Assembly (NCBI GenBank): GCA_002011035.2
Contig: MTLY02000001.1
Location: 320,001-384,000, forward strand
DNA: 64,000 nucleotides
Direction of reading: 5' to 3'
Origin: Candidatus Hecatella orcuttiae
Lineage (GTDB): Archaea; Thermoproteota; Bathyarchaeia; Hecatellales; Hecatellaceae
Positions within the stretch are counted from its first letter, which is position 1. Every line of letters starts with the position of its first letter. Below are positions 14,240 to 28,847 of this stretch, one piece after another. The position numbers and the translations under genes were made by a program. Below the pieces are notes generated by a model. That model was not told the DNA's origin and did no database searches. It saw only the letters and a program-made list of their open reading frames with translations.

Positions 14240-15610
14240 GTGATCGATCTTCTAGAACTTTGGAAACGCTCAGAATCAGGGCCAGAGATAGGGGAGAGAG
14301 AATTCGACATGAAGATTCTCCCCAAAAAGCTGGAGGAGCTTCGGAAGGAATATGGCATCCGCTACAACCCAGAAGAAGTAGTGTCCACCGACGCCTCCCT
14401 CGCCAAGGCTGTCTATGAAGCCGCCCTCAAGCTCCTCTGCGACGTCGGAGTTTACTGTACCGACAGCGGACGAGTCATACAGGTGTCGGAGGAAGAGGTC
14501 GAGGAAGCCCTCCGCTCAGCCTCAACCCGGCTCTTTCTGGGCGGAGGAAAGGAAAGAATCGAACTCGCAGCCCGCCGGACGGGAGACGGCCGGAGGCCGC
14601 TCATAGCCGGAGGGCCTTGCGGCTGCCCTCTTTCCGAGAAATTCTACAGAAGAATCCTGTACAGCTACGCCAAGGAAACCTCAGCGGACATCATGGTGAT
14701 GGGGCCCTTGGAAAGCTTCAAGGGAATGACCATCAAACCCCGGTCGCCCATCGAAATGGCTGCTGCGAGGACTGAGGCTGTGGAGGCTAGAGAAGCCGCC
14801 AAGGCAGCGGGCAAGCCGGGCCTGTGCATCTTCGGAGGCATCTCCGTGGTCACGGCGGCAGCCTCCAACTTCGCCGACTCCCCCGACGGGCTCAGGCCCA
14901 CAGACCTGCATGAGGTGGCGCAGTTGAACGAGTTAAAGATGAGCTGGGAAGTCTTCAACAGGATGACCCACTGCCAATACCAAGGGAACCTTGTGGCCGC
15001 GGCTCAATGCCCTGTTCTCGGCCAAGCAGGCGGACCGGAGGCGACGGCCATCCTCTGCGCAGCTGAAGCCCTGCAGGCTTTCACCCTGACACGCGGCCAC
15101 CTTTTCTGCATGGCGCCCTCCCACATGTGGACTTCGACCACCACCGACAGGGAGGACCTCTGGGTGAGCTGCTTGGTCATGCAGGCGGTTAAAGGCGTTC
15201 ACCCAGTTCCCATGGGAAGCTACATCTACTCGGCAGCCGGGCCTTGCACCGAAATCCAGTGCTACGAACTGGCAGCCCAGACGGCAACTCACACCGCCTC
15301 CGGGGCAGACCTAATCTGCTCTGCAGGAGGCACGCGGGGGACCTATGTGAACCATTACACGGGAATGGAAGCTAGGATAGCGGGGGAAATCTGCCAAGCC
15401 TCAGCCTCCCTCAGAGCAGTGGAAGTCAACGAGCTTGTGAAGGAGCTGCTGAGCCGGTATGAGGAGCCGTTGCGGATGAGGAAGGCTCCTCCGGGGAAGA
15501 GGTTTGAAGAATGCTACGACATTGAGAAGATTTCACCTTCCGAGGAATATGTAAGGCTTTGGGAAACCGTTAAGCGAGAGTTGGAAAACTTAGGTATGAA
15601 TTTTCCCTGA
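14240..15610 (+). CDS. MtmB-family methyltransferase homolog without pyrrolysine
   Basis: Collinear with MtmB (GGPCG, LNELK, AGPCTE, YTGMEAR, PPGKRFEECYD); GKPGLCIFG has Phe at the Pyl position. Confidence 0.85.
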   Translation: MIDLLELWKRSESGPEIGEREFDMKILPKKLEELRKEYGIRYNPEEVVSTDASLAKAVYEAALKLLCDVGVYCTDSGRVIQVSEEEVEEALRSASTRLFLGGGKERIELAARRTGDGRRPLIAGGPCGCPLSEKFYRRILYSYAKETSADIMVMGPLESFKGMTIKPRSPIEMAAARTEAVEAREAAKAAGKPGLCIFGGISVVTAAASNFADSPDGLRPTDLHEVAQLNELKMSWEVFNRMTHCQYQGNLVAAAQCPVLGQAGGPEATAILCAAEALQAFTLTRGHLFCMAPSHMWTSTTTDREDLWVSCLVMQAVKGVHPVPMGSYIYSAAGPCTEIQCYELAAQTATHTASGADLICSAGGTRGTYVNHYTGMEARIAGEICQASASLRAVEVNELVKELLSRYEEPLRMRKAPPGKRFEECYDIEKISPSEEYVRLWETVKRELENLGMNFP

Positions 15611-15745: not shown

Positions 15746-16066
15746 TCAAGGTGAAAGCATGGTCAGGATTTCTTTCCGCTGCCTGGAGAGCTCTAGGAAA
15801 AGTCTTCCCCTTTCCGTGGTCATTATGCCCCCTCTTTCGGTGAGAGTTACTAGGCCCTTCTCCAACAAAAGTGAAACGTAGTTCTTGTAACGGTTAAAGT
15901 TGAGGTTAGCCCTGTAGACCACCTCGGTCTTTGATGCCCCGTTGAAGGCGACGGAAAGGATGTCCTCCACGATTTTTAGTCCATCCCGTCGTTTAAAGGA
16001 AATATTTTCCGGGAAACCGGAGGCCGCTGGAGGGGACTTCTGCTTGGTATCGAGGCGGCTATTCAA
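15746..16066 (-). CDS. Winged-helix DNA-binding protein
   Basis: RRD..IV.DIL, SKTEVVYRANLN, TERG pattern. Confidence 0.8.
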   Translation of the reverse strand: MNSRLDTKQKSPPAASGFPENISFKRRDGLKIVEDILSVAFNGASKTEVVYRANLNFNRYKNYVSLLLEKGLVTLTERGGIMTTERGRLFLELSRQRKEILTMLSP

Positions 16067-17032: not shown

Positions 17033-17257
17033 TTATCTGTATTTACGGATGCCGATGAAGCGTGCGGATGGGCCTCTGAAGTTCTCTTCAACCTCTCCCC
17101 AGTAAGTTCCGCAGACACGGCACCAAGGGACGTTGGTGACTTGCACTCCCCACCATCCTTGGTAGCCGCATTTGGGACAGTTGGGGCTGTTCTTCTCTGC
17201 TTTTGGTTTTACTATTTCAGGGACTACAACCTTCGGTTCTTCTAGGACGGTTTCCAT
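17033..17257 (-). CDS. Small Zn-ribbon protein
   Basis: CPKC...CRVC; strong SD GGAGGTGA upstream. Confidence 0.7.
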   Translation of the reverse strand: METVLEEPKVVVPEIVKPKAEKNSPNCPKCGYQGWWGVQVTNVPWCRVCGTYWGEVEENFRGPSARFIGIRKYR

Positions 17258-17277
17258 TTTTCACCTCCTCCTTTTTT

Positions 17278-17330
17278 ACCCGACCCGGGAAAGTTGGGTT
17301 TCGCTTGGTTTTCCCAAGCTCGTCAGGGGT
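17278..17330 (-). ncRNA. Type I hammerhead ribozyme
   Basis: ACCC-CUGACGA-GCUUGG(GAAAA)CCAAGC-GAA-ACCC(AACUUUCCC)GGGU-C-GGGU: full conserved core, three stems, GUC cleavage triplet. Confidence 0.85.
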
Positions 17331-17404
17331 TTATTGTGAAATTTTTTATCCGTAATAAAGAAAGTGTTGGCGGCATATAATTATTTAGCGAAAACTATAA
17401 ATTC

Positions 17405-17416
17405 TAGTATATACTA
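17405..17416. promoter_or_regulatory. Palindrome TAGTATATACTA, candidate operator upstream of PhoU-like regulator
   Basis: Perfect 12-bp palindrome ending 17 nt before ATG 17434. Confidence 0.35.
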
Positions 17417-17433
17417 AAGATAGTGGGGATTTT

Positions 17434-18522
17434 ATGGAGGGAAGAAAGCTTCAAAAGGTCGGCTACTCAACCCTCAGCGTTTCTCTCCCCAGCCGATGGA
17501 TCAAGCGGTTTAGGTTGAAGAAGGGGGACACCGTCGTCTGCAGCTATGAGAAAGACGGCTCCCTCAGATTGATGCCTTCGGAAATGGCTGAGTCTAAGGG
17601 CAGCTTGGATGTGGCAGTGAACTTAGACCTCTGCGACAGTCCCACGCTGCTGGAGAGGCTTGTCGTGGGCTGCTACATCGTAGGCTACGACACCATAACG
17701 GTGTTTTCGCGAAACAAGATTCACGGGGATTGGCTTACCGTCTTGAGGAACGTTTCCCAGAGGCTGATAGGGCTGAGCATCATGGATGAAAGGCCTGACG
17801 CTGTCGTCCTTCAATGCACCTTAGACCCTTCCAGCATCCCTCTGACGACGATGATGAGGAGGCTTTACGCTTTGACGGCGACCATGTACACTGAGGTTTT
17901 GGAGGCACTCATGGGATTTGATCCCACCCCCGCTAAGGAGGTGGTGAACAGGGAGTCTGAAGCCAACATGCTGTATTGGCTGATTTTACGCGTCATAGAG
18001 CTGGCTCTGACCGATGTGAGGATTGCGGAGAAAGTCGGCGTGCAGAACCAGCATTATCTGCCCACCTACCGGGTTGTCATTAAGTATTTGGAGGCCATAG
18101 CGGATTATCTGGAGGAGGCAGCAAGCAACATTCTCCAGCTTATCGAATTGAACAAGAAGCCGAACGAAGCCATGGTGAAGGAACTGCAGCGAATAGGAAA
18201 AATCGAGTTGGAGGTTTTCAGCGGCGCCTTCGAAAGCCTCATCACCGGCGACTTGCATAGGGCGAACAAGTCTGTTGAAGATAGGATGAGGTTAAAGGAC
18301 GATGCGGAGGAGATTGTCACCAGAATTCTGAGGGAAACCGAGGACCCGGAGATAGCGGTTCACATAAAGATTGTGAGTAGGGCTTTTAATAGGATCGCGG
18401 AGATAGGGGCCTCCATGGCCCATCTGGCCATCAACATGTATGTCAGCAAACCCAGTAAGATGGTGATGCCGACGGATTCCGGGAGGCTTCCGAAGGAGAA
18501 GACAGCTGAGTCTCAGGTCTGA
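17434..18522 (+). CDS. AbrB-PhoU family transcriptional regulator
   Basis: N-terminal RKLQKVGYSTLSVSLPSRW AbrB domain; YIVGYD; PhoU-like helical repeats. Confidence 0.85.
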   Translation: MEGRKLQKVGYSTLSVSLPSRWIKRFRLKKGDTVVCSYEKDGSLRLMPSEMAESKGSLDVAVNLDLCDSPTLLERLVVGCYIVGYDTITVFSRNKIHGDWLTVLRNVSQRLIGLSIMDERPDAVVLQCTLDPSSIPLTTMMRRLYALTATMYTEVLEALMGFDPTPAKEVVNRESEANMLYWLILRVIELALTDVRIAEKVGVQNQHYLPTYRVVIKYLEAIADYLEEAASNILQLIELNKKPNEAMVKELQRIGKIELEVFSGAFESLITGDLHRANKSVEDRMRLKDDAEEIVTRILRETEDPEIAVHIKIVSRAFNRIAEIGASMAHLAINMYVSKPSKMVMPTDSGRLPKEKTAESQV

Positions 18523-21457: not shown

Positions 21458-22855
21458 ATGGACTACCTAACCAGAATGGGAGACGGCCGACCGGTAAGAA
21501 TGAGCAAAGAGCAGATAAAAGCCGACATCGAAGCCGGAACCAAGGACGCGGCGGAAAAAGCCCACGTCCCCGAGCTTTCAGGAGCCGAACAAGAGCATCT
21601 GCTGGAGATCATCACCGACCCCAACCGGCTGGTAGCCGTGGAGCCGGGGAGAGAAGTCGTCCTCACCCACGACGTAGGGCCTTTGAAGGTGATGGCCGAC
21701 CAGTCCAACAGCGGAGTGAGCATCCCATGCTCCCGGGAGCAAGCCATGTGCATCTACGAGAAAGCCTTCAGCGCCGACACCGCCGAGCTGGGGCACATCG
21801 ACTACAGCTTCAAACCCGTTAAACCCATCATCACCCAGGAGCAATCGGTCCTGCAGAACGTCCTGCACATGACCATCCTCCCCATCTTCTACGGAGCCAT
21901 GCCTAACCTAGGCCTATACTACGCCCCAGACGGACCCTTCCCCGAACCCATCGGGCTCATCAAGGACCGCAAGATAGGGGAAGCAAAAGAATCCATGGAA
22001 AACGCCGCCCACAGGTTTGTGGAAGACCTAGAATACATCACCGTGAGACTCTACGAGGTAGGCTTGGACGCCTTGAACATCGACACCACCGGCGCCGGAG
22101 GCGACGCAGACTTCTACGCCTCCCTTACCGCCACGGAAAAGATAAAGAAGGAATGCCCCTACCTCTGCGTGGAAATGGGCATGGCGGGAGAATTCATCCT
22201 AGGATTCCACACCGAGCTGAAATATCAAGGCGTCAAACTGGCGGGACTCTGGCCTCACCAGCAAGCCAGCCTCGCTGAAAAGGCAGGAGTGGACATCTTC
22301 GGCCCGGTGGTCAACACCAAGCCTTCTCTGTCCTTCCCCCTCAACATCGCCAGAGCAGTCACCTTGGTCAAGCACTGCGTCAAAGAATCCAAAATCCCCA
22401 TCCACGTCAACATGGGCATGGGCGTTGGGGGAATCCCCATGTACGAAACTCCGCCGGTGGACGCTGTGACCCGGGCCAGCAAGGCAATGGTTGAAATCGC
22501 CGAGGTAGACGGCTTATAGGTGGGAGTGGGCGATCCCTTTGGGATGCCCATAGCTCACTGCGCCGCCAGCGGCATGGGAGGCATCAGGACGGCGGGAGAC
22601 ATGGTGGCTAGGATGCAGATGCTGAGATATAGGTTGAAGGACGCGAAGGACTACGTGGCCAAGAAGCTGGAAACCGACACCATGGCTCTGCGGGACGAAT
22701 TTGAGATGAGAAGGCTGAGGGAGAGGCTCAACATCGGCACTATCACAGGCGTCCCAGGGGTCGCCAGGGGCCTCGAAGCCAAAGCCCGAATCGCCGAGAT
22801 CCTCGGCATCCGCATCAACGCTGTCGAACGCCTTAAGGAACTGGTGAAACTCTAA
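21458..22855 (+). CDS. mtbB: Dimethylamine methyltransferase with pyrrolysine (in-frame TAG 22517-22519, codon 354), 465 aa
   Basis: YLTRMGDG start; VDGL-TAG-VGVGDP continues in frame to [16 protein letters not shown]. Confidence 0.95.
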
Positions 22856-27362: not shown

Positions 27363-28847
27363 CTACCCGCGCGCAGCCCTGTCCGCTTCTTTGACGATAG
27401 CCTCCATGGAGGCCAACAGGTCTTTGTCGATGGGTGGAACCTGGTGAGTCTTCAAGATTTCCTTCGACTTTTGGTAGGCCAAGTAGGCTAGGTCCTTCTT
27501 GTCTGTTTTTTTCTCCCAAGTTCCTCGCATGTCCCTGTTCAGCAGCGTGGGGAAGGATTCCTCCGCGTCCATCCATTGGAGGGTGTGCTTCTTGGAGAGG
27601 AAGTTCCCCCCAACCCCCACCTCTTTTATGAGGTCTGTCGCCAAGGTGTCATCGTTCACAGAGATGCCCTTGGTAGCCCTCCGGCACATGGCTATGATAT
27701 CGTGGTCGATGATCAGCTGCTCCAAGCTGAACGTTTGACCCAGCTCCAGCATCCCAGCGCCGTAGATGGCATTGGCCCCCGCCAGCATGGGCAGGAGGGT
27801 GGTTATGGTCTTCTCGTGGGCAGCCTGCGCGTCGGGGAGCTTGGCATCAGCCTAGGTGCCTGCCACATAGCTGGGCAGCCCATAATACTGCGCAAGTTGC
27901 GAAACAGCGGCGCTTATCAGCCCCAGCTCCGGCGCTCCCACGGGTGCTGTGGCCGTCCTGAGGTCGAACATGGTGGTGGAGCTGCCGTAGATGACAGGTG
28001 CACCGGGCTCTGTCAGCTGGGCGAGGACGATGCCTGAGAGCACTTCTGCGTTATGGGTCACCAAAGTGCCGGCCAACGTCACGGGGCCTGTAGCTCCAGA
28101 CATGGCCATGCTTAGCACGTTCACCGGGATGTCGTAGCGGGCTCCTTGGATGATGACTCCGCAGGCGTTGGCGTGCAGCTGGAGGGGACTGGTGGGACAC
28201 AGCAACACGGATATGATGGGCCTCTTCCTGAAGGCTTCTTCGTCGCCTCCATAGTAGGCGACACCCATCTTGAAGTAGTACTCCATGTGCTCAGCCACCG
28301 GGTCGACGTGGTGGAAGTGTTTTCTCGTCCCCACCCAGGAAGTGAAGGTTTCGTGGACGTCCGAAGCCAAGCCTTCCATCAGAAGCTCTCTGGCTGCACA
28401 GGGCAGGGAGAAGAAGTCGATGGTGGAGCACCAATCTGCAAGGACAGCGGCTTCATAGACGTCTTGATTGTTCGACTCTCGAATGGAATTGGTTTCATAT
28501 TCGTAGGTGTACAGCCCCGTGCCGAAGGTAGTGTTACCCACTTTTCTTCCAGCCTCTAGAAGCACGTCGCTTCCCTTTTCACGGCCGGCTAAAAGGACTC
28601 GGCCGGGACACTTGTGGAGGGCGTCCTTAACGATGTGCTCAGGAATCCTCACCATGCGTTTCACCGGGTCAACGTCACATCCTCCCTTTTTGAAGATTTC
28701 CAAAGCCTCTTCATGGTAGACTCCAACTCCGCTGGTCTTCAATACGTCCATCGTCTCCGAGTTGATGCGGTCTAGGGCGTCTCTGGAAAGTAGCTCCAAC
28801 CTAGCTCCTTGAACCATGTCAAGTCCGGCGAAGAGTTTCACTGGCAT
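27363..28847 (-). CDS. mttB: Trimethylamine methyltransferase with pyrrolysine (in-frame TAG 27854-27852), ~494 aa
   Basis: YGLPSYVAGT-TAG-ADAKLPDAQAAHEKT...GANAIYGAGMLE; ATG 28847 after GGAGGTGA; final stop is also TAG. Confidence 0.95.

Follow-up and report, generated by a model that had tools for sequence, protein, structure and literature searches.

The minus strand of the window, by which we mean the whole 64,000-nt stretch of the Candidatus Hecatella orcuttiae genome analyzed here, carries a type I hammerhead motif just upstream of a small zinc-ribbon gene, and we consider it quite probable from the sequence that positions 17330–17278 encode a genuine ribozyme that cleaves in the cell. 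Hammerheads occur in all domains, and to our knowledge few have been reported from archaea. The initial annotation of this DNA had proposed a hammerhead in the leader of the zinc-ribbon gene, and this proposal is now backed by the fit of the candidate to a natural class of short-stem hammerheads, by covarying relatives in other archaea, and by a parallel in a provirus of a second genome from the same family (G001).

Reading the minus strand places the stems and the conserved core segments CUGACGA, GAAA and GUC exactly where they had been annotated, and the same holds for the predicted bond between 17282 and 17281 and for the 24-nt leader that keeps the Shine-Dalgarno sequence (Table 1). Hammerhead numbering puts the scissile bond 3′ of C17, so that the predicted 3′ product starts at G17281 with a 5′-OH and has a leader of 24 nt (17281–17258) before the ATG at 17257. 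The core is complete, with C3 U4 G5 A6 N7 G8 A9, G12 A13 A14, the pair A15.1–U16.1 and H17 all present (the last two positions read being U17283 and C17282), and the core-adjacent pairs are all standard (1.1–2.1 G-C, 10.1–11.1 G-C and 15.1–16.1 A-U) within stems of 4, 6 and 4 bp. Stem I is open and stems II and III are closed by loops, which is the topology of type I, as seen both in the order of the elements along the minus strand and in the alignments to two covariance models, R1 and Hammerhead_HH9, that are described below. The acceptance rules set out in the excerpted text of Perreault et al. (2011; PMC3088659) are a conserved core, three helices and core-adjacent pairs that are not mispaired, and the core and helices of the candidate conform to them.

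Table 1. Features of the candidate ribozyme and of its surroundings, in window coordinates.
Feature	Positions	Strand	Basis or remark
ORF, 74 aa, orphan zinc-ribbon protein (CPKC ... CRVC)	17033..17257	-	translation
Shine-Dalgarno-like GGAGGUGA, 3 nt before ATG	17261..17268	-	sequence read
Type I hammerhead ribozyme candidate, 53 nt	17278..17330	-	sequence read; R1 match span 17276-17332
Stem I, 4 bp, ACCC/GGGU	17330-17327 with 17281-17278	-	sequence read
Predicted scissile bond, 3′ of C17 (= 17282)	17281..17282	-	position from hammerhead numbering
Stem-loop III: A15.1-U16.1 and three C-G pairs, 9-nt loop	17283..17299 (17299-17296 with 17286-17283)	-	sequence, fold
Core G12 A13 A14 and A15.1 (GAAA)	17299..17302	-	sequence read
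Stem-loop II, 17 nt: 6 bp GCUUGG/CCAAGC, loop GAAAA	17303..17319 (17319-17314 with 17308-17303)	-	
Core strand C3-A9, CUGACGA	17320..17326	-	sequence read; fits the acceptance consensus as excerpted from PMC3088659
TATA-like block GCTAAATAATTAT, putative promoter of the ribozyme-gene transcript	17377..17389	-	inside conserved block 17377-17422
Perfect 12-nt palindrome TAGTATATACTA, shared intergenic region	17405..17416	.	sequence, relatives
Divergent gene, PhoU + MazE/AbrB-like regulator	17434..18522	+	Pfam PF01895, PF04014

Natural counterparts of the candidate were retrieved from public collections with a pattern that fixed the core and the letters of the candidate's stems I and III while leaving stem-loop II and loop III free. 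The pattern matched 97 metagenome stretches and 11 stretches of viral contigs (108 matches, 73 distinct natural cores), against a chance expectation that a rough estimate by hand puts below one. Although the pattern left the region free, a stem II of at least 4 bp stands directly at the core in 54 of the 73 natural cores, and in 50 of the 73 this stem has 5 bp and a 7–8-nt loop of the form UGARAnU. The candidate departs from the class in its loop II, which is GAAAA closed by G-C, while its 17-nt stem-loop II aligns to R1 without a gap in the stem and equals in total length the 5 bp and 7-nt loop usual in the class. Stem I is 3 bp long in 15 of these cores, 4 bp in 23, 5 bp in 25 and longer in 10, so that the 4 bp of the candidate are typical as well, and many of the metagenome members are tightly packed in the order stop codon, ribozyme, start codon. 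When the stems of the pattern were changed to CGC/GCG as a control, the viral matches numbered more than 114, from which it follows that such ribozymes are abundant in tailed-virus contigs whatever their stem letters, and that retrieval through the candidate's stems alone is no proof of common descent. A second control with GGG/CCC stems had no viral match, but it violates the natural preference for C15.2–G16.2 and serves poorly as a control. A pattern with fixed stem II found three stretches in genome contigs in which no complete hammerhead is visible.

From these matches we assembled an alignment (A1) of 71 sequences that have stem II directly at the core, comprising 55 of 74 CCC-type and 16 of 89 CGC-type rows; the 19 CCC-type and 73 CGC-type rows left out mostly have an extra U after the core. 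When the hammerhead structure is imposed on A1, 89.9% of cells are paired, compared with 72.9% in shuffles, and the positions vary in the manner of paired bases: the stem II pair 15–32 is CG in 34 sequences, UA in 25, GC in 6, AU in 5 and GU in 1 and is never unpaired, and the fourth pair of stem I is formed in 59 of the 71 by six pair types. The covariance model built from A1, R1, gives the candidate 55 bits, corresponding to an E of about 1e-12 over the genome, with a runner-up of 15.5 bits both in the window and in the whole 1.75-Mb genome. The 55 bits are partly circular, because the CCC-type rows of A1 were retrieved with the candidate's own stem letters, and the non-circular part consists of the terms for stem II, spacing and flanks. 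By R1 score, a stem I within 3–5 bp, a stem-loop II of about 17 nt and a site before a start codon, the candidate falls inside this class, itself retrieved with the candidate's stem letters, and these features make it very probably a member of the short-stem-I, virus-associated type I hammerheads.

The Rfam models for hammerheads, a check proposed in the initial annotation, do not confirm the motif, and they fail in the same way on natural members of the class. No Rfam hammerhead reaches its gathering score in the window or E ≤ 10 in the 301 nt around the candidate, and the best match within the hammerhead clan, obtained in a 73-nt scan, reaches 13.8 of the 52 bits required for gathering by Hammerhead_HH9. 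The local HH9 alignment nevertheless spans exactly 17278–17330 on the minus strand and pairs the same stems as we do. The gathering thresholds of RF00163, RF00008, RF02275–7 and RF03152 are not reached by the candidate; compared with RF00163, RF02275 and RF00008, the best alignment agrees in span and stems and the score stays below gathering. Likewise, 16 natural loci of the short-stem class contain no Rfam hammerhead at gathering score, and in a second set of 10 natural class loci the matches have 17.8–26.8 bits, all below gathering. Because Rfam misses natural members too, its silence on the candidate is uninformative, and the class, which escapes the current Rfam thresholds, is probably under-annotated.

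Running R1 over 151 genomes of the class Bathyarchaeia, including that of the window (G000), gave matches at E ≤ 0.01 in 11 genomes, seven of which score at least 42 bits: G053 (66.1), G062 (60.3), G000 (55), G147 (48.4), G073 (45.7), G001 (45.2) and G070 (42). Strong hammerheads are thus present in six of the 150 other genomes, and these were not chosen by the candidate's stem letters. The letters of stem I are changed with pairing kept in G147 and G001, as are those of stem III in G147 and G073, and the hammerhead of G147 has its predicted cut after A. In a model-fitted alignment of the seven archaeal sequences (A3), pairing holds in 96.2% of cells and both partners have changed in 11 of the 15 pairs, with the proviso that such fitting favors the structure. 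At the family level, strong R1 matches occur in two of 14 genomes, G000 and G001, and in a sample of 151 genomes from the phylum, which included G000, G001 and G073, six match at E ≤ 1e-4, three of them being further genomes. A 29-bit match in G127 is, as read by eye, a type III hammerhead. Three matches of 22.9–24.1 bits (G028, G115 and G030) look incomplete and were left out of the count of class members.

In their packing these relatives resemble many of the metagenome loci. In four of the six the ribozyme starts 0–2 nt past a preceding stop codon, and 4–11 nt separate its end from the next start codon; placement before a start codon is shared by G053, G147, G001, G073 and many metagenome members, and the 24 nt of the candidate fit this placement. 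The ribozymes of G053 and G147 lie between two genes for secreted or surface proteins, whereas that of G073 precedes an 84-aa ORF with ribozyme-linked homologs in metagenome loci. Stem I of G001 and of G053, and at a longer distance that of G147, contains in its 3′ strand a purine-rich stretch resembling a ribosome-binding site (GAGG, GGGG, GGAGGU), and many members of the class have a run of 5–8 U in loop III.

The closest parallel comes from G001, in which the ribozyme occupies a tailed provirus whose genes run from terminase large subunit, portal, scaffold and major head protein through the ribozyme to a 93-aa CPKC zinc-ribbon ORF and the tail genes. The G001 ribozyme and the candidate are of the same type, agree in the starts of stem II and loop III, and are each followed by a small CPKC zinc-ribbon ORF, which in G001 begins 6 nt after the ribozyme. 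They differ in that stem I of G001 carries compensatory changes, stem II has 8 bp and a 3-nt loop, loop III has five U, and the ribozyme stands directly after the gene for the major head protein. Between the two zinc-ribbon proteins there is hardly any likeness (pairwise E 0.042, at which homology is not demonstrable), and a word search found no relatives of the G001 protein. A CxxC ... CxxC pattern occurs in none of the 68 downstream ORFs of metagenome and viral class loci, so that the parallel may be a coincidence. A search for the same ribozyme–gene pair in relatives or viruses had been suggested in the initial annotation: a provirus does carry a hammerhead before another zinc-ribbon gene, but none of the relatives searched has an orthologous ribozyme locus and the proteins are not demonstrably homologous.

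The 74-aa protein itself has no Pfam or PHROG family, and in a word search among 5.8 billion proteins it matched itself alone. An exhaustive search of 1.84 billion representatives returned one weak relative of 97 aa (CPKCG ... CRxCGTYW, E 3e-5) together with repeat proteins. Its nearest clusters by language model are small hypothetical proteins of tailed viruses, a lead only, given a score of 0.92 with low feature overlap. The searches of metagenome and viral loci confirmed no relative. A genome search at the level of the order gave weak zinc-ribbon matches only, in three of which a small zinc-ribbon gene adjoins one with an S1 domain; we take these pairs to be ribosomal protein S27e and eIF2-alpha and judged them non-relatives.

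To gauge chance matches, we compared the genome with simulated ones. A loose type I descriptor (the core with minimum lengths of 4, 4 and 3 bp for stems I, II and III) has one match in the real 1.75-Mb genome, the candidate, and 14 matches in 60 first-order Markov genomes (0.23 per genome), two of which equal the real one in quality (about 0.03 per genome, or ~1 per 30 genomes). Such decoys make the bare motif weak evidence across a large scan, and a scan of many windows would meet them, which is what one would expect if random sequence had merely matched a minimal descriptor here. The absence of an Rfam call can be read in the same way, as can the fold energy: RNAfold predicts the three-way hammerhead junction as the minimum free energy (MFE) structure of a 71-nt segment (−17.9 kcal/mol), but this energy is ordinary for the composition (z only −1.08). 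Against a chance origin, a descriptor with natural preferences (C2.1–G1.1, G10.1–C11.1, C15.2–G16.2 and GUC, drawn from the natural family and the published consensus and picked after the natural family had been seen) finds the real site alone in the genome and no decoy in 330 simulated genomes. The gap between 55 bits and the runner-up, the details common to the candidate and the ribozyme from the same family in G001, and a site on the sense strand 24 nt before a start codon, as in natural members, also argue against it, and we give a chance motif hardly any credence.

The site is chromosomal. Its neighbors include genes for phenylalanyl- and Trp/Tyr-type tRNA synthetases, an M24 peptidase, MtmB, the PhoU + MazE/AbrB-like regulator, an ammonium transporter and corrinoid/dimethylamine methyltransferases, and the content of the window is of archaeal type, including an MtmB-like gene, pyrrolysine insertion elements and a gene for dimethylamine methyltransferase that is interrupted by an amber codon. 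Three relatives (G002, G009 and G010) conserve the block 17377–17422 alone, at 83–92%; this block holds the palindrome and two TATA-like stretches beside the regulator gene, and the palindrome is probably the operator of that neighboring regulator. In G002 and G009, as read, GCTAAATAATTAT lies about 40–45 nt before the start codon of a different divergent neighbor gene, which was not found in G000 with the query used. In G000 the block 17389–17377 stands 120 nt before the ATG, and the added length is mostly ribozyme. An archaeal TATA box has a usual spacing to the start site, and given this spacing and the position of the block, transcription would start near 17350–17355, 20–25 nt before the ribozyme, so that the whole ribozyme would be transcribed. 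The second TATA-like stretch is nearer to the ribozyme and could put a start inside the core. Directly before the ribozyme, a TAA at 17333–17331 closes no ORF and resembles a leftover stop codon.

The G+C content is lowered to 0.41–0.48 across about 15.4–17.6 kb. Provirus signs were not found around the site in the window, where the only PHROG match is a winged-helix gene (15746–16066; a PHROG without assigned function). The lowered G+C, the G001 parallel and the viral-like nearest clusters of the ORF, these last as a lead only, suggest that a virus-derived ribozyme–gene cassette may have replaced the ancestral neighbor gene, and we infer that the ribozyme and the small zinc-ribbon gene most likely came together from a tailed archaeal virus.

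An element acquired in this way could also be a relic, descended from a real, probably viral, hammerhead that arrived with the zinc-ribbon gene and is inactive here, whether by an internal or downstream transcription start, by misfolding, or by slowness without a tertiary contact. That the cassette is unique to this genome, with another gene at the same place in relatives, is consistent with such a history, as are the absence of an upstream cistron needing separation (the ribozymes of relatives begin 0–2 nt after a stop codon), the departure of loop II from the class norm, the competing fold favored in the full leader (see below), and the TAA that looks like a leftover stop codon without an ORF to close. 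However, all core positions and three helices are intact, which would be unexpected after long neutral drift, the conserved TATA-like block is far enough upstream for the full ribozyme to be transcribed, and the loop II region also varies among the archaeal relatives, with a 5-nt loop in G073 and an 8-bp stem in G001. On balance we regard an inactive relic as unlikely, and an active ribozyme remains our preferred reading.

The folding of the leader bears on a further alternative. In the full 118-nt leader the MFE fold pairs ACCCCU, which comprises the 5′ strand of stem I together with C3 and U4, with the ribosome-binding site AGGAGGU; the most stable fold with an intact hammerhead lies 2.5 kcal/mol above it, and the hammerhead makes up less than 1% of the predicted ensemble. 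Such pairing is what would be seen if the region were a structured leader that regulates translation without cleavage, with hairpin II and C-rich segments switching the ribosome-binding site between masked and exposed states and the likeness to a hammerhead being incidental. Yet the 118-nt fold is no better than those of shuffles (z −0.95), and such a leader would leave the intact catalytic core and the 55-bit match unexplained, so that we find this alternative very unlikely; a non-cleaving structure and a chance motif together carry, in our estimation, a small probability. In one and the same frame, the hammerhead occupancy of the candidate is 0.23, compared with a median of 0.006 in the 71 natural sequences, and since natural members fare so poorly, nearest-neighbor occupancy is a poor guide here.

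A pseudoknot or switch between loop III and the stem II/loop II region had also been suggested, starting from the complementarity of UUUCCC (17292–17287) to GGGAAA (17315–17310). The complementarity is there, but the structure is not supported: taken as a competing fold, this helix loses 3.5 kcal/mol against the hammerhead and occupies ~0.6% of the ensemble. In solved hammerheads stems II and III stack coaxially, end to end, so that their loops point apart and a helix between loops II and III cannot coexist with the active architecture. A contact between loop II and a flank, described as a common tertiary contact in the excerpted text of PMC3088659, is likewise not supported in the short-stem class, in which comparisons with own and foreign flanks are alike: pairing of at least 4 bp is found for 36% of own and 29% of foreign 5′ flanks, and for 32% and 24% of 3′ flanks. 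In the CGC/GCG control class, by comparison, such pairing of loop II with the 3′ flank is in excess (69% own vs 44% foreign). A 4-bp match of UUUC with GAAA, found upstream of the candidate, is no more than chance would give, judged on Watson-Crick pairing only.

If the candidate is active, transcription would proceed from the conserved TATA-like block at 17389–17377 with a start about 20–25 nt upstream of the ribozyme, and the 53-nt ribozyme would fold and cleave after C17282. Because it is complete before the ribosome-binding site is transcribed, it could fold and cut first, and with a stem I of just 4 bp the cleavage products would separate immediately. A 2′,3′-cyclic phosphate would remain on the 5′ piece (about 70 nt), and the freed mRNA would begin at G17281 with a 5′-OH and a 24-nt leader in which GGAGGUGA is unpaired. 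Cleavage would also strip off the ACCCCU segment, the predicted partner of the ribosome-binding site in the uncut RNA, and by removing it, processing would favor translation in addition to altering the chemistry of the mRNA 5′ end. Since the fold energies are not better than those of shuffles, we put forward the unmasking of the ribosome-binding site as a hypothesis.

In the excerpted text of the 2011 survey (Perreault et al.; PMC3088659), prophage hammerheads lie in short intergenic gaps, flanking genes and often with several per prophage, and are thought to cut long transcripts into gene-length mRNAs. The candidate has the same catalytic core and the same junction with an open stem I as these type I ribozymes, but it is archaeal, sits in a promoter-proximal leader with no upstream cistron, has a stem I of 4 bp, and shows no pseudoknot between loop II and the flanks that we could find. 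The same text counts ‘at least three’ archaeal hammerheads, and describes a variant in the haloarchaeal viruses HF1/HF2 that precedes the first ORF of a transcript, 13 nt from its start codon, the mapped 5′ end being at most 3 nt from the cleavage site, which suggests an mRNA 5′ end defined by the ribozyme. As excerpted there, the HF1/HF2 variant shares with the candidate the archaeal domain and a position a few nucleotides before a start codon, whereas it is viral, its core is a variant one and it is discussed as salt-tuned, and the candidate is chromosomal and has a consensus core. A limited literature search for hammerheads together with Bathyarchae gave no report of natural ones, and in the paper that it returned the ribozyme serves as a tool.

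It is possible, although we hold this tentatively and with more doubt than confidence, that short-stem-I hammerheads in this archaeal class and in its tailed viruses serve generally to create mRNA 5′ ends and are not stray passengers of mobile elements. The uncut ribozyme would then mask the ribosome-binding site, and the cut would leave a 5′-OH mRNA with a leader of no more than 24 nt. A run of U could double as a terminator in archaea, and through the U run of loop III one element might terminate the upstream message as well as begin the downstream one. The copy in the window would on this account be host-captured, coupling promoter-driven transcription to ribozyme-dependent unmasking of the ribosome-binding site.

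Seen from the window alone, the finding is one more hammerhead before a gene without assigned function, very probably a new example of a known RNA type, here placed by its sequence in the chromosome of a methylamine-methyltransferase-bearing archaeon. Of wider interest to specialists may be the escape of these ribozymes from Rfam, their presence in seven of 151 genomes of the class, and the packing of stop codon, ribozyme and start codon, a tight arrangement in which the definition of archaeal mRNA 5′ ends by ribozymes could be tested.

Some hammerheads of this class are found with a recurrent protein-coding partner, and those of three archaeal genomes carry a putative translation signal within the ribozyme fold itself. 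A small protein of 55–84 aa with the pattern MxVRxQxF ... EGY ... I/L-IT is encoded downstream of the hammerhead in G073, a class genome, and at four metagenome loci, and forms with it a recurrent ribozyme-gene pair. In the hammerheads of G147, G001 (same family as the window genome) and G053, a purine-rich, ribosome-binding-like stretch lies within the 3′ strand of stem I, close to a downstream start, where it would be masked by stem I until cleavage. One metagenome contig bearing a hammerhead of the short-stem-I class also contains a permuted tmRNA (Rfam RF04321, 65.6 bits).

Loop III frequently contains a run of 5–8 U (T in the DNA), as seen, for example, in the hammerheads of G053, G062, G147 and G001 (loci L245–L248) and in many of the metagenome loci L015–L111; loop III of the window copy has no such run. 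Oligo-T runs are terminator signals in archaea, and a U-run hammerhead might therefore be one element that both terminates the upstream message and starts the downstream one.

Read by eye, the weaker match in G127 is a complete type III hammerhead with an open stem III and a stem I closed by a 5-nt loop, and its loop II, UGAAAGU, is the same as in the type I class. Most of the CGC/GCG-stem hammerheads of viral contigs L123–L236 have a core followed by one additional U, together with a 3′ flank that is conserved (GGAGCCA...) and able to pair with ..UGGC.. of loop II, a pairing of the published pseudoknot type (PMC3088659), and several of these contigs carry two or three copies.

Upstream of the window ribozyme, an intergenic block that adjoins the gene for the PhoU plus MazE/AbrB-like regulator is 83–92% conserved in three other genera, and probably comprises divergent promoters and an operator for autoregulation. 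Elsewhere in the window, a PYLIS_2 element (71 bits) starts exactly at the amber codon that ends the dimethylamine methyltransferase ORF, the opposite strand carries a PYLIS_3 element (79 bits), and the MtmB-like ORF has no in-frame stop. Together, these sequence features point to the use of pyrrolysine by the window genome, whose same-family relative is named Bathyarchaeia in one source.

Coordinates of the features discussed
Feature	Sequence	Position	Detail
MtmB-like ORF	window	14240-15610	456 aa
Intergenic block	window	17377-17422	perfect 12-nt palindrome, two TATA-like stretches
Palindrome TAGTATATACTA	window	17405-17416	perfect, 12 nt
Dimethylamine methyltransferase ORF and PYLIS elements	window	21458-22616 and 27755-27854	
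Region with GGAGGU, stem I 3′ strand	L247 (G147)	1551-1570	11 nt upstream of 298-aa ORF start
Region with GAGG, stem I 3′ strand	L248 (G001)	1557-1571	8 nt upstream of ATG
Region with GGGG, stem I 3′ strand	L245 (G053)	834-847	7 nt upstream of GTG
Small-protein locus after hammerhead	L249 (archaeal genome G073)	1569-1823	
Small-protein loci after hammerhead	metagenome L020, L029, L102, L111		
Type III hammerhead	L251 (G127)	about 1495-1570	minus strand, read by eye
Permuted tmRNA	metagenome contig L016	122-390
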